A stretch of DNA of 11,543 nt from a virus. Taxonomy: Duplodnaviria > Heunggongvirae > Uroviricota > Caudoviricetes. Below the pieces are notes generated by a model. It saw only the letters and a program-made list of their open reading frames with translations, was not told the DNA's origin and ran no database searches. Within the stretch, counting starts at the first letter, position 1; each line of letters begins with the position of its first letter. Below, one piece after another: positions 1-11,543 of this stretch. The stretch lies in the IMG/VR virus record IMGVR_UViG_2698536484_000028, one strand, 5' to 3'. The position numbers were made by a program, and so were the translations under genes.

Positions 1-84
1 TACGTCATTGAACATATCCAGGACTGGCCGGCAAACCGGGTACGCGATCTGTTGCCCTGGAAAGTTGATCTGAGCTCTCAGTAA
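1..84 (+). CDS. 3' end of an ORF entering from upstream of the window; product unknown
   Basis: Frame 1 is open from the window edge to TAA at 82-84 and translates to YVIEHIQDWPANRVRDLLPWKVDLSSQ*. There is no start in the window and I do not recognise the family. Confidence 0.2.
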   Translation, partial: YVIEHIQDWPANRVRDLLPWKVDLSSQ

Positions 85-145
85 ATATCAATACGGTTCT
101 GACGAGTCGCTTACGGTATTTAAATGACATAGGGTTTTTATTCCC

Positions 146-170
146 AAATAAAAAACCCCGCGATGCAGGG
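146..170 (-). terminator. Rho-independent terminator ending the minus-strand replication operon
   Basis: Minus-strand RNA reads CCCUGCAUCGCGGGG (stem CCCUGC/GCGGGG with one U-G wobble, loop AUC) followed by UUUUUUAUUU. It lies about 25 nt downstream of the stop of the 194..955 gene. Confidence 0.55.
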
Positions 171-193
171 TTGTAATCAACAATAAGGGGTAA

Positions 194-955
194 TTACGAG
201 GAAGCGTTAGCTATTTGAGCTTGTGTAAATTCGAAACCAGAATTTTGTAACCGTTGCACTAGACGAGGAACTGTTTCACGTACATGGTCGTTGAAATTCA
301 GATACAAAATCCCGTTAGCATCAGAAGGCTGTTCTAGGTGCTGTTTCTGAAGGATTGCTACATTGCTGCGCCCTAAGGACGAAAGAAGCATACCCATCTC
401 GAGTACAACGTTCTGTCTTGCGCGGGGTTGGATTTCTGCTTCACCGGCGCGCTTTGAGTATCCCATATCATCAGGTGTCAAAAGAACAATCCCGAAACGG
501 GTAGCAGTTTGTCCTTGCCCAATTTCACGTTCAAGCTCTTCAATAATGGTGAGTCCAGTCCCTCCCGTATTCTGCAAAATGAAATGGTCTGGTAATCCAA
601 GTTTATGAAGGATTAGCTCAAGTTGCTCCTTTGCAGTATGGTCATGGCCGTGAACAATGAATATCTTTTTGGGGAGCTCAGATGGCTGTTCTACGGCTAG
701 TGGTGTTGCCGTGGGCGGCGTTCCTAAATGGGTCATTATTGCAGTTTCAACATTGGGACGTTCTTGAGGGTTACCTTGAAACTGAATGGTCCGGGTGGTG
801 TAAAGGTTAACAATTACGCCATTCGTTAAACGATAGCAGTCACAAGTCTCACGCTGTTCGTGGGAAAAATTGGTGAACCCACACTCCCTCAAAAAGTCAG
901 GAAAAGTTTCTCTCGAGTATGGATAGGTGATCGGCATTTCAGTTAGTTCCTGCAT
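194..955 (-). CDS. TIR-like (COG4271 / Cap12-PycTIR-effector-like) nucleotide-binding domain protein with an unrecognised ~75-aa N-terminal domain
   Basis: 253-aa ORF with AAGGA about 9 nt upstream of the ATG. Residues ~97-230 carry KIFIVHGHD..AKEQLELILHKLGL..GLTIIEELERE..FGIVLLTPDDMGY..NVVLEMGMLL, which I recognise as the hallmark pattern of the predicted nucleotide-binding TIR-like family. A Pro/Thr-rich linker (GTPPTATPLAVEQPSELP) joins it to the N-terminal domain. Family assignment is from memory, not a search. Confidence 0.75.
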   Translation of the reverse strand: MQELTEMPITYPYSRETFPDFLRECGFTNFSHEQRETCDCYRLTNGVIVNLYTTRTIQFQGNPQERPNVETAIMTHLGTPPTATPLAVEQPSELPKKIFIVHGHDHTAKEQLELILHKLGLPDHFILQNTGGTGLTIIEELEREIGQGQTATRFGIVLLTPDDMGYSKRAGEAEIQPRARQNVVLEMGMLLSSLGRSNVAILQKQHLEQPSDANGILYLNFNDHVRETVPRLVQRLQNSGFEFTQAQIANASS

Positions 956-1019
956 AAGTATTGTTCCTTTAATTTACTCGAATTCAGCATGTCGCCATAG
1001 CTCGATAAGGTGAGTTATA

Positions 1020-3083
1020 TCAATCTTTTTTGTAGTGGTACGCCTCAAAACCGCCAGCGTTCAGTGGGATATCGGGCGCCCATTCGGGGTCAGTGGAGAG
1101 AAGCGCGGAAAGCGCTTTATCGTTGAAATCTTCTGTGTCAGGTGCTTCGGTGATCACCTCGTCGTGTACCGTCAGCACAATGCTGTAACCGGCATCTTCG
1201 ATAAGCGGCATGTTTCCGGCCAGAATGTCGCGGGCGGCCGCCTGGGTGATGTTCTCCACCAGCTTTCCGCCGTAGGTTTTGAGTCGTTGCCATTTACGCG
1301 AATAAGAGTTAACCCCCATGTAGGTGATATTCCCTTTTTCGATAACCGGAGACGGGTAGCATACAGCGCGTCCGGATGGTAGCTGTATGCGCAGCCACGC
1401 GCCATCGCGGCGGATTTTAAGATAACCGCAATACAATGTTTTTTGCGGTGTGGCGATTGCAGTGCGGACGGTGCGCTCCAGTTCGTACCAGAAATCACAG
1501 GTCGCGGGATGCGCCCGGCGCCAGAGACGTTTAAGTGAGTCGCAGGCGATAAATACCCGTTCAGAAAGCCCGTAGGTTGACTTGCGTTTAACCGATTCGT
1601 CGTACCAGCTTTTCGCCTCGCGGATAACATCGCGGGGAATGTTTGGTAGTGCGGCGTTCGCCAGCTCGTCGAGATCGAGACCGTAAACCAGTGCAAAAGT
1701 GATGAAGGCCGACACACCACCACCATAACCCAGACCGAGTTCCATGACTTTACCGATCTGACGCATGTGTTTATCAACATCATCTGGTGCAATATCGAAA
1801 GCTTTTGCATACGCCAGTTTATATAAGTCCGGACCCGTTCCGGCGTCGTACTCTCTGAATGCATTCAGTTTCCATTCTTCTCCCGCCAGCCATGCCAGCA
1901 TACGGCCTTCAATGTTCGACAAGTCACTTACCACCAGCTTTTTGCCTGTTGGCGCGATAATGCAGCCACGTAACGCTGAACTGGTTAGTTCCATGATATT
2001 GTCAAACAGCAGGTCTGCACATCCGGCTTTCAGTGCTTCGATGCCTTCGTCTATTTGTTCCTGTTTTAGTGAAGGGCGGGGAAGGTTCTGGGGCTGGAAT
2101 AGCCGTCCGGCCCAACGACCGGTACGTGACGCCCCGCAGAACTGTAGCGTACCGCGTAAGCGCCCGTCGTGGCTTACGCCTTTCATCAGTGCCTTGTATT
2201 TACTGGTGCTGGTAGTACTGGCCTGCAGGCGGATAGCCAGCAGTTCTTTCACGGCAGATGGTAAATCGGGGTCGGCAATACGACGTTCCAGAGTACTGCG
2301 TTGCATGTCTGGTAGCTCCACACCGTAGGATTCAACAATGTGCTTAATCAACGCGTCTCGTTGTGTGGCTGCCTGCACTTCGCCATCAGTCATTTCCTGT
2401 GTACGCTTTGCCAGGCGCTTTTGCTCCTGGTCTACCGCTTCGATCGCAGCGCGCGCGAGTTGAATGTCCATGCAGACGCCCCGGTCGTTGATCTGCTGAT
2501 CACGATGCCAGAGCGCCAGTTCTGTCCCCTGATAATTCCACTTCGGCAGACGTTTATAGACTTCGCGCATTGCCTCGATATCCAGTCCGGCGTAAGCAAC
2601 AAAGCGCCGCCATTCTTCCGGGTGGGTTTTACTGGTGGCCCGACGCAGTTTGCTGTTTTTCGGGCGTGGCTTACAGAACAGCTGGATCAGCGCTTTACCT
2701 TCTTTGTCCTTCGCTTTGTCTTGCGGGACGCCGAGTATTTCGCAGAGTTCCCCCAGAGACCCCGGGAGGCCGTGCGCCAGCGCCTGCACCATTGTGTCGC
2801 GCCAACGTTCGACTGGCGGTGCCAGGCGCGGCATTGCATAACGCAGAACGGTGCGGTCGAAGTGAGAGTTATGGAAATAAAGCAGGGTTTCAGGGTCTGC
2901 GATTGCTTCGTATAAGCCGTGTGGAATACCACCACCGGCAGTGATATCCCACACGTTTACTGGCCCGTCGTTGATAGCCCATGCGAAAAGCATCACTTCA
3001 ACGCCTTCGGCATACGCATGGGTACCGTTCGTAATAGGGATTTCGCAATAGGTTTCCAGGTCGCCCCATAGTATATTGGACAT
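1020..3083 (-). CDS. Family A (Pol I-like) DNA polymerase with N-terminal 3'-5' exonuclease domain, phage type
   Basis: 687-aa ORF with AAGG SD 7 nt upstream. Exo I-like motif WGDLETY near the N-terminus; motif A-like [15 protein letters not shown], motif B-like [16 protein letters not shown], motif C-like LTVHDEV. Confidence 0.9.
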
Positions 3084-3129
3084 GTGTTTACCTTGGTTTT
3101 TATTCTATTAACTGATTAAAAGATTAATT

Positions 3130-3759
3130 ATGCATATGATCCAATACTTGATTGACCATACAGAGCATCTGGAGAAAATAGCTGGATATATTTTTTCATG
3201 TTTGATTGTTATGGGAGTCTGGATAAGAAAGATTATTTTTAATTATAAGTATAAAGAGCCTAAATATGTTAAGAAGTTAATTTTATATTTAGTTAAGTAT
3301 GAACGTTATCTGGATGAGGAGGATAAGAGTGCCATAGAAAAAAGAATAAATGATAAAATTATTCGTGATGCGCTGAAATTGCAATCATCTTATAACCGAA
3401 GAGATGTTATTTACATTTGCAATAGATTAGAAAAAAGACAGTATATAAATCAGTTGATTAAGCTTCAGAATTATATAGAGAAAGATAACGGAGTGTTTTT
3501 TATTAATGTTGATTTTTCAGGTTTTTTATTTATTATTAGTCGTCTGTTTTCCTTTCTGTGTTTTGTGCTGTTTACCCTTTTTTCTATTATCTGCATTATT
3601 TCCATAGGGCAAAATGAAGGCCTTTTAAATTATCTTGTGTATATGGTTATGATAATAGTTTTAGAGACTGTTGGTTTTTGGATGTATGATACTTTCCCGT
3701 CTAAGAAAAAGATCTGTGAACTAAATAAAGAATTGAGAAAGATTAAGATTCCTGAGTGA
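3130..3759 (+). CDS. Hypothetical multi-pass membrane protein encoded by a strongly AT-rich, opposite-strand insert
   Basis: 209-aa ORF on the opposite strand to its neighbours. Sample 60-nt lines count about 17-33% GC, against roughly 50% in flanking genes. Hydrophobic segments at ~aa 16-32, ~121-160 and ~168-187; Lys/Glu-rich middle region. No clear SD, and the start could be a downstream Met. Confidence 0.6.
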   Translation: MHMIQYLIDHTEHLEKIAGYIFSCLIVMGVWIRKIIFNYKYKEPKYVKKLILYLVKYERYLDEEDKSAIEKRINDKIIRDALKLQSSYNRRDVIYICNRLEKRQYINQLIKLQNYIEKDNGVFFINVDFSGFLFIISRLFSFLCFVLFTLFSIICIISIGQNEGLLNYLVYMVMIIVLETVGFWMYDTFPSKKKICELNKELRKIKIPE

Positions 3760-3777
3760 TTATACGCCTAATCAGTA

Positions 3778-3796
3778 GCCCGGTGTTTAACCGGGC
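3778..3796. other. GC hairpin between convergent genes (GCCCGG-TGTTTAA-CCGGGC)
   Basis: Perfect 6-bp inverted repeat with a 7-nt loop between the stop of 3130..3759 (+) and the stop of 3812..4360 (-). No U-tract on either strand, so not a canonical intrinsic terminator. Confidence 0.3.
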
Positions 3797-3811
3797 GTCT
3801 ATGAAGTAGGG

Positions 3812-4360
3812 TTAAATTAGTGCTTCAGCATCAGCACCTTCGCTGATATCGTCGAAATCGTCAGCGCTTGCCACTCCGCCGCCAGCGAGTGCATCGCCGT
3901 CTCGCAGGAACTGGACTCCGCCGAGTGAGGCATTAATGCGTTTACCGAAATTATTGTCCTGTGCCCAGATATCGATAACGGCGTTTACATAGCACCCTGC
4001 ATAGGGACGTCCGTCAGCCTGAATAAGTGGCGAACGATCGCGATCAAGAACAGCTGGGCGCGCTTTGTTAGCAGCATTCAGGAAGAAATTACCGGGGAAG
4101 CCTTCATACTCTGCTTTTTCATCACCATCATGCAGGCACAGATTGAGTTTTTTCTCCAGCTGGTTATAAATGGGCTCCCACTTCTCTCCCCATTTTTCCT
4201 TCGCTACCTGCTTCATAGCTTTACGGATTTCTTCCAGTTGTGGGTGTTTGGGAGACATTAAAAATACTGCGGAGAAACGCGGATCGCCTTCGCCGTTTAC
4301 AGTTTTAGCTTCAAACAGAGACGGGAAGGCCAGACGAACATTGTTCAGCTTCAGTTTCAT
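3812..4360 (-). CDS. Phage SSB-like protein (DUF2815-type) with acidic C-terminal tail
   Basis: 182-aa ORF with AAGGA SD 8 nt upstream. N-terminus MKLKLNNVRLAFPSLFEAKT..PRFSAVFLMSPKHP matches my memory of the DUF2815 phage ssDNA-binding family (as in the Enc34-type replication module). C-terminal acidic tail DDFDDISEGADAEALI. Confidence 0.8.
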   Translation of the reverse strand: MKLKLNNVRLAFPSLFEAKTVNGEGDPRFSAVFLMSPKHPQLEEIRKAMKQVAKEKWGEKWEPIYNQLEKKLNLCLHDGDEKAEYEGFPGNFFLNAANKARPAVLDRDRSPLIQADGRPYAGCYVNAVIDIWAQDNNFGKRINASLGGVQFLRDGDALAGGGVASADDFDDISEGADAEALI

Positions 4361-4375
4361 GGGTATTTCCTTAAA

Positions 4376-5677
4376 TCAGATGAGGTCTGCGGTTAGCGTA
4401 TCGTCGGATACGTCGTCGAAATCATTTACAGGGTTGATATTGAGTGCGGGGCGTGGGTCTGACTCGGGAACGACGGTGGGTTTTCCATCAGCTCGTGTTA
4501 TCAGTGCCTCGACTTTTGACCAACGGCGCGGACTGGCCTTTTTGATAAGTTTTTCGGCTTTTGTGGGACTAATAAGTTTAAAGTCGAATACTTCTTCAGT
4601 TTTGTACCTGAACTGGTCCTTCAGAAGTGCGCGAGCTGCCTCTTCATCACTCCAGGCCCGGTTACCTTGTTTTCCTGTTACCAGTTTAAACCCCGGTACC
4701 GGATGTCCGGCATTGAGTTCATCGTGAACCCGGTCCCGTACTGCCTTTAGCCAGGATTCAATAAAGTCGGCCTGGCTATAGATCTCTGCAAGCTGCTCAA
4801 TGGTTAACAGAGGTACACGTGCGCTGGCATTGGTGATTATTTCGCTGACAGGCTTTGTCAGATCTTCAAAATCGCTGGCCGCTGTTTGTAAATGCTGCAT
4901 TTTCTGGGCAGTGCAAATAGCTTTTGCTTTACAGAAGCGGCACTGTTTTTCTCCAGGTATGAAGTTTTCCAGCGGTAGTGTCTCAATGCCTTCGCATTCA
5001 GCAATATTGAGAACAAGGATCGCACTGGTTGCGGCCTCCAGTGCCCGTTCACCGAAAGACTGAAGTTCCTGTACGGTTAACGACCATTCTGAAACGTGGT
5101 TGAGCCTTGGCTGGTGAATAAATAATCTTACAGTCTCAAAGTCATACAGCATGCTGAATTGTTCGAGAGCACCCAGAGCATACAGTTGTAGTTGCTCATT
5201 TTGTTCTGCATCAATGCGGACGCCTTTGCCATATTTCAGGTCGTGGATTTGTAATTCGTTACCAGCGATGATTATGCCGTCGGCAGTTCCGAAAGATTCT
5301 TCCACACCCGTTATATGTGAGAAATCAACACGTTGTTCAACCAATAGTTCATTATTCTGTGCAAGAGTCCAGACCGTATCAACATACCGGCCGACGGCTT
5401 CGACCATTTCATCATCCACCTGTGGGCCAGATGTATCATCAGGATTTTCGCGAAGGGGGTATGAGCCGAGAAACATAGAAACATTGCATCCGGCGTAGTG
5501 TTCCGGGTGGCTTTGCCTGTTTCGTAGAACTTTTTCAGCAAGCGCGTGCGCTGTAGTGCCCTCGATTGCAAAAGTTGTTTCTTTATCCGGTTGTGTGGCC
5601 TCCAGCGCCAGACTTCCTGGGCAGCGCATCCATCGATGCGCTGATGATGGAGAAAGTTGTGCGTGAACGTCTGGCAT
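4376..5677 (-). CDS. Cas4/RecB-like PD-(D/E)XK nuclease (DUF2800-type) with Cys cluster
   Basis: 433-aa ORF with GGAGGG SD 6 nt upstream. N-terminal [15 protein letters not shown]; GTADGIII and IHDLKYGKG nuclease-core-like motifs; QLQLYALGA (QxxxY); [10 protein letters not shown] plus the N-terminal Cys as a probable Fe-S/metal cluster. Acidic C-terminal tail [16 protein letters not shown]. Confidence 0.8.
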
Positions 5678-5679
5678 GA

Positions 5680-6582
5680 TTAACCCTCCAGTGCTTTTTC
5701 AGCCAGGGTGATTACTTCAGCGAGATTTTCATCCGTTACTTCACCAAGTTTCCTGGCTCCCTGTTTTTCCAGAATTGCAATAGCTTCTGCCCGGTAGCCC
5801 CCTTTTGCTAACTGGAGGATCAACCCTTCAGCTTGTTTGCGTAGTGCCGCGAAATCAATTGTATGGTCATCTTTGGCGTCATTATTCTGGCTGGAATTTG
5901 CTGCGTCTCTGCGTGCAAATTCTTCCTGCAGCTGAAGGTACTCAACACGGTTGATCTCGATATGGCCTTTTTTAAGCATCTCGTTCAACTTGCGTAAGGT
6001 GTGGAGTTCACTGGCTGCTGTGCCGGATACATTTTTGACGTAAAACGGCCCCGTGCGTTCTCCATCTTTGTTACTGGCCTTTTTCGGCTTAACTTCATCA
6101 CGCCCATCTGCAGGTGCATCAAGTAGCTGCTCGGCAAAAGCACGTCGCTCGCCGATGGTTGGCAGGTCGTCCCAGAACTTAAGGATGTTACGGGACAGGT
6201 CCAGGAGAGCAGGTTTAAGCAGCGCCCTGGCTCGTTTGACGCCCTGCAATGCGCTGTCGAGAGCATCAATCTGAACTACTCGTTTATCGCCTTCAGCATC
6301 ACGGTAGGCAACAGCACGTTGCAGCATATCTTCTGTGATAGGGGTGGCTACCGGGTAGAAACCAGCCAGTGCGATAACGTCGCTGAACTCCAGATCATCC
6401 AGTGTCATTGCCGCTGACATATTTTCAGTTTCAGTTGCTGTATCCCGACATTCCTGCACTCGTGAAATCGTGTCAGGATGCATAACAATACCTGATGCCA
6501 TTGTGCGGATAAGACGTTCAAGCAGCGCATTATGTTGTGCCAGAAGTTGATTATTAAGTTCTAGACTGGTTTCTAAACTCAT
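5680..6582 (-). CDS. Hypothetical protein, first large gene of the replication operon
   Basis: 300-aa ORF with GAGGA SD 7 nt upstream. Its start overlaps the upstream ORF stop (ATGA) and its stop is 2 nt from the nuclease start. No family recognised. Confidence 0.7.
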
Positions 6583-6728
6583 ACTGTGGTCCTCGCTACA
6601 AGGAGAATGAAAGTGATGATCAGACCGAGCGCAGTGGCAACGGCCAGACCGGTCATCAAATCGAAGTTTTTACGGCGATAACGGAGAACATCGCGCCCCG
6701 TCAGTCGATGGATGTGTTCAGGTTTCAT
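6579..6728 (-). CDS. Small single-pass membrane protein (about 49 aa from the preferred start)
   Basis: The ORF track gives 6579..6761, but the Met at 6728 has a good SD (AAGGA, 9-nt spacing) while 6761 has none. C-terminal hydrophobic helix LMTGLAVATALGLIITFILLVA. Translationally coupled (ATGA) to the next gene. Confidence 0.5.
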   Translation of the reverse strand: MKPEHIHRLTGRDVLRYRRKNFDLMTGLAVATALGLIITFILLVARTTV

Positions 6729-6785
6729 CGGTTGTATTCCTTTTTTCATATCGGGGAGCACGCTGTTGCGAGTGCGCTTTCAGAC

Positions 6786-6813
6786 ATAAAAAAGCCCGTC
6801 ACTTGCGGCGGGC
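6786..6813 (-). terminator. Intrinsic terminator-like hairpin on the minus strand, upstream of the replication operon
   Basis: Minus-strand RNA reads GCCCGCCGCAAGUGACGGGC (5-bp GC stem with additional inner pairs) followed by UUUUUUAU. It lies about 58 nt upstream of the 6728 start codon, on the same strand. Confidence 0.45.
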
Positions 6814-6891
6814 AAAGACTACACACAGCAATTACATGGATATCATCGAGTGCCTGCTTTTAACCACATCAGGCGAGGTGGTTCTCCTTGT

Positions 6892-6936
6892 ACCCCTACA
6901 GTGAGAAATCGTCTAATATCTCTTCACCCCTACAGT
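6892..6936 (+). repeat. Two direct copies of ACCCCTACAGT upstream of the 6953 gene
   Basis: The core CCCCTACAGT occurs at 6893-6902 and 6927-6936, 34 bp apart. The second copy sits inside an imperfect inverted repeat (TCTAATATCTCT .. GAGAGATTAGA). A TAATAT hexamer lies between them at 6914-6919. Confidence 0.35.
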
Positions 6937-6952
6937 TTGAGAGAGATTAGAT

Positions 6953-7471
6953 ATGTCTGAAGAAAAAGGAATTCTTTCCCGGATAACTGAATCGTTATCC
7001 GGTGTGGGAGGAGCAATTAAAAGCGCGGTTGGAGCAGCAAGAGAGATTCAGAATCTGACTGTCGACTATGCAGTTAAAGAGAAGACGCACATCTTACTCG
7101 ATAAGCTAATGGATGTTCAGATGCAGCAAATGTCGCTTCAGGAGCTGCTGATTGCGGCTAAGGAGAAAATTGTTGAACTGGAAAATGAGAAAGTAAAGCA
7201 AGAGAACTGGGCCGCTGAAGCGGCGAGCTATGAACTTTACCAGCCTATGCGGGGTACTCTGGTCTATCGCAGCAAGCTTTCTGCAGATGCTGACCAATCT
7301 CCGGTTTATATTTGTCCCAATTGCTACGAGCAAAAGAGAAAATCTATATTGCAAGCGGAAGGTCTGGTTACTAAGCTAGGCCTTGGGCGAGTCGTTAATA
7401 TGGTTTGTTCGTACTGTAGGGCTTCCTATCTGTTCAACCCGAAATGCTTTAGAGGCCCGACTGCCTTCTGA
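6953..7471 (+). CDS. Hypothetical coiled-coil protein with C-terminal zinc-ribbon (CPNC..CSYC)
   Basis: 172-aa ORF with GAGAGA SD-like sequence upstream. Gly-rich N-terminal segment (SGVGGAIKSAVGAA), predicted coiled coil (LQELLIAAKEKIVELENEKVKQENW), then CxxC-25 residues-CxxC. Convergent with the cI-like gene. Confidence 0.7.
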   Translation: MSEEKGILSRITESLSGVGGAIKSAVGAAREIQNLTVDYAVKEKTHILLDKLMDVQMQQMSLQELLIAAKEKIVELENEKVKQENWAAEAASYELYQPMRGTLVYRSKLSADADQSPVYICPNCYEQKRKSILQAEGLVTKLGLGRVVNMVCSYCRASYLFNPKCFRGPTAF

Positions 7472-7574
7472 AGATGAAAATCCGGGGAAGGCAATCACGG
7501 ATTACGATCCTTACAACCAGTAATTTCTTTAAGCATGGGTACCCTTCCGGTCACCCAGAGTTAAAGGAACTAAG

Positions 7575-7601
7575 CGCCCCATCATCGGGGCGTTTCAACT
7601 T
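7575..7601 (+). terminator. Possible plus-strand terminator after the 6953..7471 gene
   Basis: CGCCCC-ATCATC-GGGGCG hairpin (7575-7592) followed by TTTCAACTT. The U-tract is weak. Confidence 0.3.
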
Positions 7602-7737
7602 GCGTGACTTATCAGTTCGTCGCGGTGTTGTCCTCTACGCTTACCGTACGCATACGGACTCGGCGCTTACCTCGATCCCATCGGGTGCTATTTCGTTTTG
7701 CCAGGAGCACTGCGGCTTACCTGTCACGCGGTTCTGT

Positions 7738-7749
7738 TTGTTAAAGAGC
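7738..7749 (-). promoter_or_regulatory. boxA element (exact GCUCUUUAACAA) in the leftward transcript
   Basis: The minus strand reads GCTCTTTAACAA, identical to the rrn boxA core 12-mer as I remember it (NusB/NusE binding site). It lies about 30 nt downstream of the predicted start of the leftward promoter. Confidence 0.45.
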
Positions 7750-7773
7750 TGGTATTAGAAAATGCATTAATTA

Positions 7774-7814
7774 TGCGGTATCGTATTTATATGCGTTATG
7801 GGATTTTGTGTCAA
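7774..7814 (-). promoter_or_regulatory. PL-like leftward sigma70 promoter overlapped by two operator-like repeats
   Basis: On the minus strand: -35 TTGACA (rc of 7809-7814), 17-bp spacer, -10 TATAAA (rc of 7786-7791). Operator-like motifs TGCGGTATCG (7774-7783) and TGCGTTATGG (7792-7801) flank the -10 hexamer. Confidence 0.55.
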
Positions 7815-7830
7815 TACGAAAATGAATTAT

Positions 7831-7868
7831 TTTGCAAATAAGAAAACCGCCCTTGTGGAGAGCGGTTT
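7831..7868 (-). terminator. Intrinsic terminator downstream of the cI-like gene
   Basis: Hairpin AAACCGC..GCGGTTT (7844-7868) with extra inner pairs; on the minus strand it is followed by UCUUAUUUGCAAAAU. Sits between the cI stop (7899) and the PL-like promoter. Confidence 0.5.
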
Positions 7869-7898
7869 GATCAGAGGTAAGTTATCAGACTGTAAAGG

Positions 7899-8573
7899 TT
7901 AGTACATGCGTAGCGCGGATTTGGCGATCCCCGCCACGTAATGGATTTTTTCAATGTTTTCGCGTGGTACTCTGACTGGTGGATGATCTTCATTTACAGA
8001 CATTAGATGGAACAGGCCATCGCGTTCGAACAAGAAGGTTTTAACCATGACCTCACCGTCCCGGGTAACCACAAGTACTTCATCACCAGGAGTGTAGTCG
8101 TGGTTGGGTTCGACGATTACGAACTCACCCTCTTTGATTCTAGGCATCATTGAATCACCAACACATTTCAGGGCGTATGCATCTTCATCCTTTGTCGGCC
8201 AGTATATGAAACCATCACTGCTACCTACTGAATATTGGGTGTCGCTCCAAAGTCCTCCAACGCCTAGCTGAGTGTTTCCCAAAACAGGTACTTTATTAAA
8301 CCTAAGAGAAATATACGTTTTTATACCTGTCGCGTCCTCTTTCTCCATTTCTTGAAGGCTCCTTTCTGCCAGGTCTATTGGTGACACGTGGAAGTAGTCG
8401 GCGATCTGCTTTAACGTTGCGTATTTCGGATCTTTCACCTCTCCTGATACCAGCCTGTGTAGCGTTGGTTGGTTCAGCTGTAACCGACGTGCCAGCTCAG
8501 TTATCGAGCTTATCTTGGTTTTGTCCATCAGGTACTTGATGTTTTGAGAAAGGATATCGGTAGTATCAATCAT
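7899..8573 (-). CDS. cI/LexA-like phage repressor (N-terminal HTH, C-terminal S24 peptidase domain)
   Basis: 224-aa ORF. N-terminal HTH region (ITELARRLQLNQPTLHRLVSG); C-terminal S24 signature with Ser in CVGDSMMP and Lys in EVMVKTF. No canonical Ala-Gly cleavage site in the linker; candidates are L-G or V-G-G in VPVLGNTQLGVGG. Confidence 0.85.
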   Translation of the reverse strand: MIDTTDILSQNIKYLMDKTKISSITELARRLQLNQPTLHRLVSGEVKDPKYATLKQIADYFHVSPIDLAERSLQEMEKEDATGIKTYISLRFNKVPVLGNTQLGVGGLWSDTQYSVGSSDGFIYWPTKDEDAYALKCVGDSMMPRIKEGEFVIVEPNHDYTPGDEVLVVTRDGEVMVKTFLFERDGLFHLMSVNEDHPPVRVPRENIEKIHYVAGIAKSALRMY

Positions 8574-8714
8574 TTGGATTCATCCATGTTGTATACAGGG
8601 ACGGTGATTATGCGTTATCGGATATTTTAATACAGGATGATATAGAATTGCCGTATTGCTGAATAATCCGTTTTCGTATAAATTTGCGCTATAGACGAAA
8701 GTGGAGACTTAAAT
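8574..8714. promoter_or_regulatory. Divergent cI/cro-type immunity control region
   Basis: Operator-like motifs TGCGTTATCG (8611-8620) and TGCGCTATAG (8685-8694). Candidate rightward promoter -35 TTGCTG (8656-8661) / -10 TAAATT (8679-8684), with cro SD GGAG at 8703-8706. Candidate leftward -10 CATAAT (rc of 8607-8612). Palindrome TGTATACA at 8590-8597. Confidence 0.5.
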
Positions 8715-8915
8715 ATGTCCGGACTAACACCACAAGAGATGGTCAAAAGCTTGATTGATTCAGGGTATACCCAAAACCAAATTGCCGAAATTGCAGGCGT
8801 GAAGCAGTCTTCTATTAGTCGGCTTCTCACCGGGGTTCATTCTGACCCTCGCTTTTCTACAGTACGTGCGATAGAAAAGCTTTTTCAGGAAGTGACAGCT
8901 AGACAAAAGGCGTAA
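8715..8915 (+). CDS. Cro-like small HTH (XRE-type) regulator
   Basis: 66-aa ORF divergent from the repressor, with GGAG SD 8 nt upstream. HTH region QNQIAEIAGVKQSSISRLLTG. Stop is 3 nt before the primase start. Confidence 0.8.
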   Translation: MSGLTPQEMVKSLIDSGYTQNQIAEIAGVKQSSISRLLTGVHSDPRFSTVRAIEKLFQEVTARQKA

Positions 8916-8918
8916 CCC

Positions 8919-11180
8919 ATGTCTGATAACAAACCATGGGGAGCTACGCCCGATGAGTGGTTCCACTTCGATCTGGTGTTGGGGATGACAGACAGGCTTT
9001 TACCTGTGGTGTCCAATCCCTGTGCAGAACTGTCGCCTAATAGCAAGCTGTCTCATAATTTCGGCAAAACCCCCAGTCGCTACAATGGCCAACGTAAGGT
9101 TGTTGGTATCCCCGACTGGGCTAACTATGTTGTTACGGAAAACGATTTTGCCCGGTGGTCGAACGAACCCGATTACGGTATTTGCGTTCGTACTGGCGAC
9201 GGGGTGGTGGCTCTGGACTGCGATATCAATGACGCCGGGATGCAGGAGATCGTACGCAATATTATCCTATCATGCCTGGGGGAACTTCCGCCACGTCGCT
9301 GGCGGGCTGACAGTCATAAATGCCTGTACCTGATTGCTGTTGATGGCGACTACCGTAAACGTGGTCACCGCCTGGAAGGCGAAAACAAACAAATAGAGCT
9401 GCTCGCTAAGGGCCAGCAGTTTGTGGCTTGTGGTACCCATCCGGCAGGCGAACGTATTCAGTGGGACAGCGGTTTGCCCGGCGAACCTCTGAAAATTACA
9501 TCTGAACAGCTCGAAAGCCTGTGGCAGCGTCTGGCGGATAACTTACCCGTGAAAGACAGCTATACCGCAGGTGCAGGACGTCAGCGTGACCTTTCCTGTG
9601 TTGATCCTTCCGCGACAGATGATGTCGCCGACTGGCTTGACGCGAACGGGTGGACTCTGTCAGTCAGCTCTGATGGTTCCCGCAATCTGAAACCGTTTCG
9701 GGATGAGTCAGAATACAGCAACGGTTGCAGCGAAACATCCATTAAGTATTTTCCAAAAGGGACGGGGGGATTTGAACAGGGACATTTTAAAAGCATGCAC
9801 AACACCGATGCGGGGCTTACTGATGCCGACTGGCTGGAAGGCTACGGCTATACGCAATCCCTGTTCGAAGATCTCACGGTGGCTGAAGATGGCGATAAGC
9901 CTGAATTTACCGATATTAATACAGATATGACAGCTCATTTTCTGGAACGCTTTATCTACGTCATCGAGGGTGACCAGGTATGTGATCTTAGCCGACCGCC
10001 ATATCAGTGCATGATGGATATGAAGTCGTTCAAAAACCTGATGGCGCCTTACCAGTTCCCGCCAGAAGGGAAAGGACAACCAACTCCCGCAACCAAACGG
10101 TGGATAGAGCATCGGCATAAGAAGATTGCTGAGACGACAGGCTATAAGCCCGGTGCGGGACGTATTATCGAGCGTTTCGACGGGCGGTTTGAGATAAACG
10201 AATTTTATATGCCTGAGCATCCACGTACAGCGGATACAAGTAAGGTGTCCACGTTCCTTAATCATATGGCGTATCTGGTACCTGATGCCTGGCAGCGCGA
10301 GTTTTTCATCGCCCGTCTGGGGTGGATGGTTCAGCGTCCGGAGCGTCGATGCCCGATTTCTATTCTGCATGTGGCTACCGCACATGGTACGGGCAGAGGA
10401 TGGGTCAGTCAGTTAATGGAGCGCGTGCTTGGCCCGTGGAACTGTGCTCGTACTCGCATGAAGATCCTGTGCGATAACCAGTTCCATGACTATCTGTACA
10501 ATACACTTCTATGCACCATTGACGAGGTGCGCGAAAACGATAAGCGGTATGAGGTGAACGATAAGATCCGTGACGTGCTGACAGAACCACGGTTTGAAGT
10601 GAACCGCAAATATGGCAGCAAAAAAACGATGGATATATACACCGGCTTTCTGTTCTACACCAACCACTTTGATGCGCTGGCGCTGCCAGAGGAAGACCGA
10701 CGTATAGCTGTGCTGGGGGGCCCTGACTTCGCCGCAACTGAAGAGCATTACGCCAGCCTGTACGGTGCGCTAAGCGACAGCGACTTTATCGCCCAGGTGT
10801 ACTGGTATCTAATGGGCGTTGACCTGTCTCGCTTTAACTGGCAGCGCGCCCCCGAGACGAAAGAACGCCTTCTGATGATTGAAAGCAATAAGAGCGATGT
10901 GGAGGCTGCTCTTATTGAAATCCTGGATAATCCGCCTGTGCCAGCAATGACTTATCAACAAATTGTTAACGCAATACTGGCAGAAGCAGGAATGGATGTA
11001 GAAATTAACCAGAAGCATATTACTCGCATTTTGAAAGAAAGAACAAAGCGGGAACCCGTACGCGTAAAAATTGACGGGTTTGTATATAGGATTTGGATTC
11101 TTGTAAAAAATAACGATTTCAGCAACGAAGAATTGCGCGAAATATATAAATCTTGCGAAATTTTGCAATCTGGATTGTAA
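8919..11180 (+). CDS. Replication initiator: AEP-type primase-polymerase N-terminal domain fused to an SF3-helicase-like NTPase domain
   Basis: 753-aa ORF. N-terminal GICVRTGDGVVALDCD (hhhDhD-type AEP motif). C-terminal region has P-loop-like ILHVATAHGTGRGW, Walker B-like LLCTIDEV and motif C-like FYTNHF. An iteron origin lies immediately downstream. Confidence 0.8.
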   Translation: MSDNKPWGATPDEWFHFDLVLGMTDRLLPVVSNPCAELSPNSKLSHNFGKTPSRYNGQRKVVGIPDWANYVVTENDFARWSNEPDYGICVRTGDGVVALDCDINDAGMQEIVRNIILSCLGELPPRRWRADSHKCLYLIAVDGDYRKRGHRLEGENKQIELLAKGQQFVACGTHPAGERIQWDSGLPGEPLKITSEQLESLWQRLADNLPVKDSYTAGAGRQRDLSCVDPSATDDVADWLDANGWTLSVSSDGSRNLKPFRDESEYSNGCSETSIKYFPKGTGGFEQGHFKSMHNTDAGLTDADWLEGYGYTQSLFEDLTVAEDGDKPEFTDINTDMTAHFLERFIYVIEGDQVCDLSRPPYQCMMDMKSFKNLMAPYQFPPEGKGQPTPATKRWIEHRHKKIAETTGYKPGAGRIIERFDGRFEINEFYMPEHPRTADTSKVSTFLNHMAYLVPDAWQREFFIARLGWMVQRPERRCPISILHVATAHGTGRGWVSQLMERVLGPWNCARTRMKILCDNQFHDYLYNTLLCTIDEVRENDKRYEVNDKIRDVLTEPRFEVNRKYGSKKTMDIYTGFLFYTNHFDALALPEEDRRIAVLGGPDFAATEEHYASLYGALSDSDFIAQVYWYLMGVDLSRFNWQRAPETKERLLMIESNKSDVEAALIEILDNPPVPAMTYQQIVNAILAEAGMDVEINQKHITRILKERTKREPVRVKIDGFVYRIWILVKNNDFSNEELREIYKSCEILQSGL

Positions 11181-11183
11181 AAA

Positions 11184-11437
11184 GGTGACGGCTAGGTGAC
11201 GGCAAAACGCTTAAGCGTCACCTTAAAAAGTATATATAAAACAATGGGGAATGTGCTAAAGGTGACAGGTGACGGCAGAATTTAAAACTATATACGCGAG
11301 AGTGTGTATTTTAGGTATTATACGATCGCTTATATATATATAGAACTAAAATCAACCGTCACCTGTCACCTAAAACATCTTCAGGCTTTATATGGCGCGC
11401 TTTGCAGCAGGTGACGGATATGTAATTACGCGTCACC
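11184..11437. repeat. Iteron-type replication origin: eight GGTGAC(G/A)G repeats in both orientations around an AT-rich spacer
   Basis: GGTGACGG at 11184-11191, 11195-11202 and 11410-11417. Tandem GGTGACAGGTGACGG at 11261-11275 and its exact reverse complement CCGTCACCTGTCACC at 11356-11370, flanking an ~80-bp AT-rich segment that includes TATATATATATAG. Inverted CGTCACC at 11216-11222 and 11431-11437. Confidence 0.6.
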
Positions 11438-11440
11438 TAG

Positions 11441-11543
11441 GGAAGGTGCGAACAAGTCCCTGATATGAGATCATGTTTGTCATCTGGAGCCATGGAACAG
11501 GGTTCATCATGAGTCATCAACTTACCTTCGCCGACAGTGAATT
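11441..11543 (+). mobile_element. Left end of IS5 (terminal inverted repeat plus start of transposase), truncated by the window edge
   Basis: GGAAGGTGCGAACAAG at 11441-11456 matches the IS5 terminal repeat as I remember it and is preceded by CTAG (a typical IS5 target). The downstream sequence matches the known IS5 left end up to the transposase start. Confidence 0.8.
11509..11543 (+). CDS. insH: IS5 transposase InsH, N-terminal fragment
   Basis: ATG at 11509 translates to MSHQLTFADSEF.., the N-terminus of IS5 transposase as recalled. The ORF runs off the window. Confidence 0.75.
   Translation, partial: MSHQLTFADSE

Follow-up and report, generated by a model that had tools for sequence, protein, structure and literature searches.

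Iteron origins adjoin the gene of their initiator in several described systems, namely P4 (alpha and ori), SaPI (Rep and ori) and lambda (O and ori-lambda). The insertion sequence IS5, which concerns us here at an array of this kind, targets Py-T-A-Pu, with CTAG the commonest form, and prefers destabilised AT-rich DNA (PMC5493358). Its ins5A promoter region lies within the first 98 bp of the element, while its 177-bp 3' end has no promoter activity alone and acts on a resident promoter via an IHF site and bent DNA (PMC2753651). For comparison, we took as the defining features of IS5 the DDE transposase Ins5A (326 or 338 aa) and an overall size of 1,195 bp.

We analysed a stretch of viral DNA of 11,543 nt (Caudoviricetes, IMG/VR record IMGVR_UViG_2698536484_000028), hereafter the window, which ends inside an IS5 copy. 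We conclude with high confidence that a standard IS5 transposed into a CTAG between the ninth and tenth iterons of the putative origin of an otherwise intact prophage. Below, we describe the prophage, the insertion, the array in which it lies and the effects that it may have.

The host prophage and its early region

The element hosting the insertion is a complete temperate Escherichia coli phage of the vB_EcoM-606R2/DEC5E family, and the window corresponds to its early and replication region. Positions 114-11440 are 98.5% identical to phages vB_EcoM-606R2, -689R2 and -611R5 (ON470579, ON470582, ON470588), and positions 1032-11440 share 99.4% identity with a prophage carried by E. coli O55:H7 DEC5E. 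These four relatives share the gene order and the GGTGACGG repeat array with the window but, unlike it, are free of insertion sequences at both the IS5 and the IS66 sites. The minus strand of the window encodes a TIR-domain protein (194-955), a family-A DNA polymerase (1020-3083), an Enc34-type single-stranded DNA-binding protein (SSB, 3812-4360), a DUF2800/PD-(D/E)XK nuclease (4376-5677) and a CI-like repressor with an S24 peptidase domain (7899-8573). On the plus strand, a gene for a Cro-like HTH protein (8715-8915) is followed by that of a primase-helicase. Past the latter, IS-free relatives carry the iterons, a small ORF, the Q antiterminator gene, holin, endolysin, Rz, terminase and head and tail genes, in that order.

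A P4-like satellite was considered as the host element and rejected, since the relatives are complete phages of 36-43 kb that encode a polymerase, lysis functions and structural proteins of their own. It is also disfavoured by the primase-helicase, which is of the PrimPol/SF3 type and has no sequence match to P4 alpha. No RNA family was found in the window with Rfam, and our literature search retrieved no paper naming phage vB_EcoM-606R2.

The TIR protein, encoded at the edge of the replication module, has 253 aa and a CAP12/Pycsar-type TIR effector domain (Pfam E = 3e-31). It is likely a defence or cargo gene, and its exact sequence is present on only 23 contigs in the collection. The slot between the polymerase and SSB genes is variable: it is occupied here by a 209-aa ORF of PHROG 10579 (3130-3759, plus strand) and, in the related prophages L007, L009 and L011, by genes with Nmad5 or SIR2_2 domains, which suggests a hot spot for cargo or defence genes. 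Between the origin region and Q, relatives encode a 76-aa ORF (12599-12829 in locus L001), which is the first gene past the IS5 site. It contains two Cys-x-x-Cys pairs (CPRC...CSVC), looks like a zinc ribbon and has no PHROG match; lineages with other origin specificities carry unrelated small ORFs in its place.

IS5 is not the only insertion sequence in this family. The window opens (positions 1-114) with the right end of an ISCro1-like element of the IS66 family. This end terminates in ...CGCTTAC and adjoins GGTATTTA (up to position 122), within a small ORF that phage 606R2 has uninterrupted. Given the IS66 and IS5 ends, two insertion sequences reside in the prophage, and the window resembles an entire short-read contig with a repeat at either end. 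The IS66 junction is also found in the IS5-free sibling L093, so the IS66 insertion is probably older than the IS5 event. The predicted opposite (left) IS66 junction, with an 8-bp duplication of GGTATTTA, was not found in IMG/VR. In another related prophage (locus L012, positions 4498-6467, GCA_900449765.1), an IS21-family insertion encoding IstA and IstB splits the DUF2800 nuclease gene, again within the replication module.

An IS5 copy between iterons 9 and 10

The last 103 nt of the window (11441-11543, plus strand) are the left (5') end of IS5, identical at 103 of 103 positions (100%) to copies annotated as 'IS5-like element IS5 family transposase'. The same 103 nt match 1,812 records at 7,320 places in complete E. 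coli genomes. They equal bases 1-103 of a complete reference copy of 1,195 bp in strain FDAARGOS_497, which is flanked by a CTAA duplication. The IS5 sequence opens with the terminal inverted repeat GGAAGGTGCGAACAAG (11441-11456), followed by ATGAGTCATCAACTTACC. The ins5A ATG lies at 11509, that is, IS position 69, and an upstream in-frame ATG, which would give the 338-aa form of the transposase, lies at 11473. The transposase gene and the phage early-right operon are co-oriented.

Immediately before the element, CTAG at 11437-11440, read directly in the sequence, constitutes the left copy of a 4-bp target-site duplication. Its first base (11437) is the final base of the iteron GCGTCACC (11430-11437), and the junction with IS5 reads CACCTAGGGAAGGTGCG. 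The initial annotation, which placed IS5 at a CTAG, with its terminal repeat starting 4 bp after an iteron, was thus accurate: the iteron ends at 11437 and IS5 begins at 11441. It had taken this iteron for the last one, which holds only within the window. In all IS-free relatives, the match to the window runs to base 11440 and then stops; 32 complete E. coli genomes and the three phage genomes have matches that end at precisely this base. The empty site in DEC5E is CGCGTCACCTAGCCGTCACC, with a single CTAG, and continues as ...CGCGTCAC-CTAG-CCGTCACCCGG..., so that the tenth iteron (CCGTCACC) directly follows the CTAG. IS5 thus separates iteron 9 from iteron 10, interrupting the right-hand tandem iteron pair at its CTAG, while the mirror CTAG of the left-hand pair (11192-11195) is untouched. 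CTAG is scarce in the window (10 copies versus about 30 expected), and two of the 10 copies are inside the iteron array. The choice of site, a CTAG beside easily melted AT-rich DNA, is typical of IS5.

The right junction was predicted from the empty site as TTCGCACCTTCC-CTAG-CCGTCACCCGGAAATT. Exactly one match was retrieved from IMG/VR, at the end of contig IMGVR_UViG_2698536484_000001 (23,777 nt, locus L003), which stops 111 nt into the right end of IS5 and reads ...TTATTCGCACCTTCC-CTAG-CCGTCACCCGG. These terminal nucleotides agree with the complete 1,195-bp IS5 copy at 110 of 111 positions. The terminal-repeat motif GGAAGGTGCGAA(C/T)AAG is present at both ends, on the left at 11441-11456 and on the right as ...CTTATTCGCACCTTCC in L003, where the right repeat, lying outside the window, is assumed to belong to the same insertion. 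Our view of this IS5 copy comes from its ends, comprising the first 11 full ins5A codons (11509-11541) and the 111 nt on the right. The Py-T-A-Pu duplication is likewise seen on both sides, as CTAG at 11437-11440 and CTAG after the right end in L003. The other IS end and the target duplication, which the initial annotation expected beyond the window, were thus both located.

Joining the window up to 11440 with L003 after its CTAG recreates 659 of the 660 bases of the DEC5E empty site, which indicates a simple insertion in which the 4-bp CTAG was duplicated and no sequence was lost. Its junctions would read CACCTAG-GGAAGGTG and CACCTTCC-CTAGCCGTCACC. The comparison with IS-free relatives proposed at the outset allowed the uninterrupted locus to be rebuilt and the site to be placed within a conserved 10-iteron array. 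Of the anticipated damage to the origin or to downstream genes, separation was borne out and truncation was not. L003 aligns to DEC5E along 11,133 nt, gap-free and with a single mismatch, and all late ORFs are intact. The nearest relatives common to both halves are L001, L004, L005 and L008.

Two further contigs bear on whether both halves derive from one genome. The sibling contig JHSO01000046.1 (GCA_001266005.1) differs by a single base from window positions 1-10955 and bears the IS66 junction of the window. Its length is 35,403 nt, compared with 35,416 nt for the window part plus the L003 part, which leaves no room for IS5. The Logan contig SRR7236435_92 (11,378 nt), whose final 508 bases are not visible, has the size expected if it were broken at the same two points as the window. 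Both fit a presumed origin of the window and L003 from one genome or clone.

An IS5-mediated rearrangement (deletion, inversion or IS5-IS5 recombination) would instead place unrelated DNA on the far side of the element, leaving the prophage truncated at the origin and L003 as part of another strain. It is in keeping with a window that ends 103 nt into IS5 with the far side unseen, with the absence of the window's own contig from what was recovered in the collections searched and with a second insertion sequence (IS66 family, 1-114) pointing to an IS-active genome. We nevertheless consider it unlikely, because an exact reciprocal junction exists in matching orientation at the same CTAG, the two halves rebuild the empty site and have common nearest relatives, and their combined size is within 13 nt of that of the IS5-free sibling contig.

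An assembly artefact, with a contig end wrongly extended into the IS5 repeat and no IS5 at the site, could be suspected from the pieces of about 100 nt of two repeats that bound the window (IS66 family, 1-114; IS5, 11441-11543). Yet the transition to IS5 coincides precisely with the first base of the terminal repeat and with the preferred CTAG of IS5, an independent contig carries the mirror junction with the same CTAG, and a Logan contig from another run has the length expected from breaks at the same two points. A textbook target-site duplication would not arise from a chance mis-join, and we regard this explanation as extremely improbable. Simple transposition into the CTAG remains the reading that we follow below.

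The left junction TACGCGTCACCTAGGGAAGGTGCGAACAAG was absent from IMG/VR, GTDB species-representative genomes and JGI metagenomes, as well as from 5,426 complete E. coli genomes. A degenerate pattern covering both junctions recovered only the right-junction contig L003 from IMG/VR, and none of the 45 complete genomes with this array type is broken at the CTAG.

The iteron array and its presumed initiator gene

The window contains iterons 1-9 of a 10-iteron, dyad-symmetric, origin-like array (11184-11437) with the consensus GGTGAC(G/A)(G/C). Iterons 1 (11184-11191), 2 (11195-11202), 4 (11261-11268), 5 (11268-11275) and 8 (11410-11417) are on the plus strand, and iterons 3 (11215-11222), 6 (11356-11363), 7 (11363-11370) and 9 (11430-11437) on the minus strand, while iteron 10 lies outside the window, past IS5. 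The motif GGTGACRG occurs seven times, always within 11184-11417, against 0.57 copies expected, and none of 200 shuffled sequences reached seven. The core GGTGAC/GTCACC is present nine times in 11184-11437 and ten times in IS-free relatives.

The layout of the array is conserved. Ten copies of the 8-mer are found within 420 bp past the primase-helicase stop codon in 20 of the 21 relatives counted, the exception being L029, with eight exact copies. Across all nine mapped loci, the offsets of the iterons from the stop codon are nearly fixed (+4, +15, +37, +81, +88, ~+178, ~+185, ~+230, ~+252 and ~+263), and their orientation (>>< >> << ><<) is fixed. Iteron 10 is kept in every iteron type. Between the two halves of the array lies an AT-rich centre (11276-11355), a candidate unwinding region that contains TATATATATATA; the GC content in 60-nt windows falls to 0.28-0.33 at 11290-11379, compared with 0.45-0.50 at the array edges. 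The left pair GGTGACGGCTAGGTGACG is mirrored by the right pair CGTCACCTAGCCGTCACC, and folding of the intact array gives a single large dyad (z = -7.15).

A palindrome flanks the array on each side. The left one, TTGCGAAATTTTGCAA, of the TTGCAA-N4-TTGCAA type (11153-11168), falls at the left array edge, within the final codons of the primase-helicase gene. Its mirror partner, TTGCAAATATTTGCAA (12579-12594 in L001), comes just past iteron 10 and is now beyond IS5. The right palindrome is kept across iteron types with both arms changed (TTGCAG....CTGCAA, TTGAAAATATTTTCAA), and could be a protein-binding site or a hairpin.

The gene preceding the array encodes a primase-helicase of 753 aa with an N-terminal PrimPol domain and a DUF5906 (SF3) helicase domain (8919-11180, plus strand; Pfam Prim-Pol and DUF5906), assigned to PHROG 1156 ('DNA primase') and matching the PDB 'Primase' helicase-domain entries 6k9c/6k9e (E = 6e-8). 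It is the presumed initiator for the array. The exact protein occurs in 316 blocks, and their look-up gave only long IS-free contigs.

Comparison of lineages (loci L015-L037, window positions 11037-11440) revealed five iteron types, GGTGACGG, GGTGGCAG, GGTAACAG, GGTGTCAG and GGTGACAG. The iteron type tracks columns ~700-750 of the primase-helicase alignment and not the remainder of the protein. Where proteins are 98-100% identical elsewhere and only about 70% identical in this C-terminal segment, the iterons differ; conversely, proteins that are 44-72% identical in the N-terminal half and 85-95% identical in the C-terminal segment have GGTGACGG in common. The segment reads, for instance, REPVR-VKIDGFVYRIW, REAVK-LKVDGMTVRMW or RQPTDLVKIDGMGYRFW. 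DNA similarity between lineages is lost from about position 11040 through the array and the small ORF, and is back at Q. From these alignments, origin specificity appears to be exchanged as one cassette that includes the final ~45 primase-helicase codons (~11037-11177); these codons would form the iteron-specificity segment. By analogy with P4 (alpha and ori) and SaPI (Rep and ori), the pattern is as expected for an origin recognised by the C-terminal domain of its initiator. The comparative support for the array as a putative replication origin is strong, owing to the fixed 10-iteron layout, the co-variation of iterons and initiator, the AT-rich centre and the dyad symmetry.

Likely effects of the insertion and comparison with known systems

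Both flanks of IS5 are 99.9-99.99% identical to intact prophages, and every ORF is full length. Together with the absence of the allele from complete genomes, these near-identical flanks and intact ORFs make the event look recent and limited to one strain or clone. The suggestion, made in the initial annotation, that the element might be defective or domesticated finds no support in the sequence, and no sign of domestication was observed.

The orientation of IS5 determines which of its ends faces which part of the prophage. The transposase-promoter end faces the primase-helicase gene and iterons 1-9, while the 3' end faces iteron 10, the right palindrome, the 76-aa ORF, the Q antiterminator gene and the late genes. 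In an IS-free relative, neither a sigma-70-like promoter nor an intrinsic terminator was predicted on the plus strand between the primase-helicase stop codon and Q. Since no promoter is predicted before Q, this gene is probably read from the early promoter, and the early transcript would now have to traverse 1.2 kb of IS5 to reach it. At the same time, 1,199 bp would now separate iteron 10 and the right palindrome from iterons 1-9 and the AT-rich centre. Through the split origin and the separation of the cro/primase-helicase unit from Q, the lytic programme would probably be weakened, though not necessarily abolished.

Nine of the ten iterons and the AT-rich centre are left intact, and no intrinsic terminator was predicted on the sense strand of IS5. 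With no such terminator and with ins5A translated on read-through, polarity on Q could be mild and the prophage could be viable. From the arrangement of the locus, an impairment of replication, of late expression or of both is plausible, with the chances about evenly balanced.

An outward promoter in the IS5 end, which had been put forward as a further consequence, was dropped: the predictions gave no sigma-70-like promoter either past the insertion point or inside IS5, and the 177-bp 3' end is inactive alone (PMC2753651). With no promoter before the next ORF and the site lying inside an operon-like unit, separation or polarity is likelier than activation.

The insertion might instead have been selected, that is, kept because it changed the behaviour of the prophage. 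Crippled replication or Q expression would let the host keep the TIR-domain cargo without the risk of lysis; alternatively, the 76-aa ORF and Q would come under weak, repressor-independent read-through from the ins5A promoter. The 3' IHF/bent-DNA end of IS5 does adjoin the downstream genes, as in the fucAO, flhDC and glpFK activations (PMC2753651), the prophage contains a second insertion sequence, and about 10 assembly blocks hold contigs of a length like that of the window, suggesting that the allele persists in a clone. However, there is no gene decay on either side, the allele is absent from all complete genomes, the 3' end, itself devoid of promoter activity, has no promoter-like site downstream to act on, and short-term clonal persistence needs no selection. 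We find such selection highly improbable. The fuller form of the idea, in which a prophage with a split origin, with Q and the late genes uncoupled from the repressor-controlled early operon, is retained with its TIR cargo and weak ins5A read-through to Q, we judge very unlikely. A recent transposition into an otherwise intact prophage is the account that we retain.

The IS5 finding itself is of little weight, as it is textbook behaviour and marks one strain or clone. It does account for the appearance of this prophage as two separate contigs when assembled from short reads. It also provides a natural origin mutant with a 9+1 iteron arrangement which, together with the IS5-free sibling, is usable for testing the roles of iteron 10, the palindrome and read-through into Q. 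More informative than the insertion is the conserved 10-iteron dyad, a putative origin with a swappable specificity cassette.

Compared with the IS5 of E. coli (IS5 family, including the K-12 insH copies), the ends, the terminal repeat, the CTAG duplication and the AT-rich site are alike. The visible ends show no difference, and the novelty is confined to the location: a known element showing known behaviour in a new place, and not a new kind of biology. The orientation matches that in the IS5 activations of fucAO, flhDC, glpFK and bgl (Schnetz & Rak; Zhang & Saier, PMC2753651): seen from the downstream genes, the ins5A promoter is at the far end of the element and the 3' IHF/bent-DNA segment at the near end. 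In those cases, IS5 is inserted just upstream of a resident silenced promoter, whereas here no promoter-like site precedes the next ORF and the element sits within an operon-like unit and an iteron array.

The array itself can be set beside the origins of P4 alpha, SaPI Rep and lambda O. Unlike P4 alpha and lambda O, the presumed initiator is a PrimPol and SF3 (DUF5906) protein, with no sequence match to either. The strict 10-unit dyad (>>< >> << ><<) with flanking palindromes also distinguishes the array from the P4, SaPI and lambda origins. With these three, it shares short repeats around an AT-rich segment beside the gene of a primase- or helicase-type initiator and, as in them, lineages differ jointly in the repeat sequence and in a small part of the initiator.
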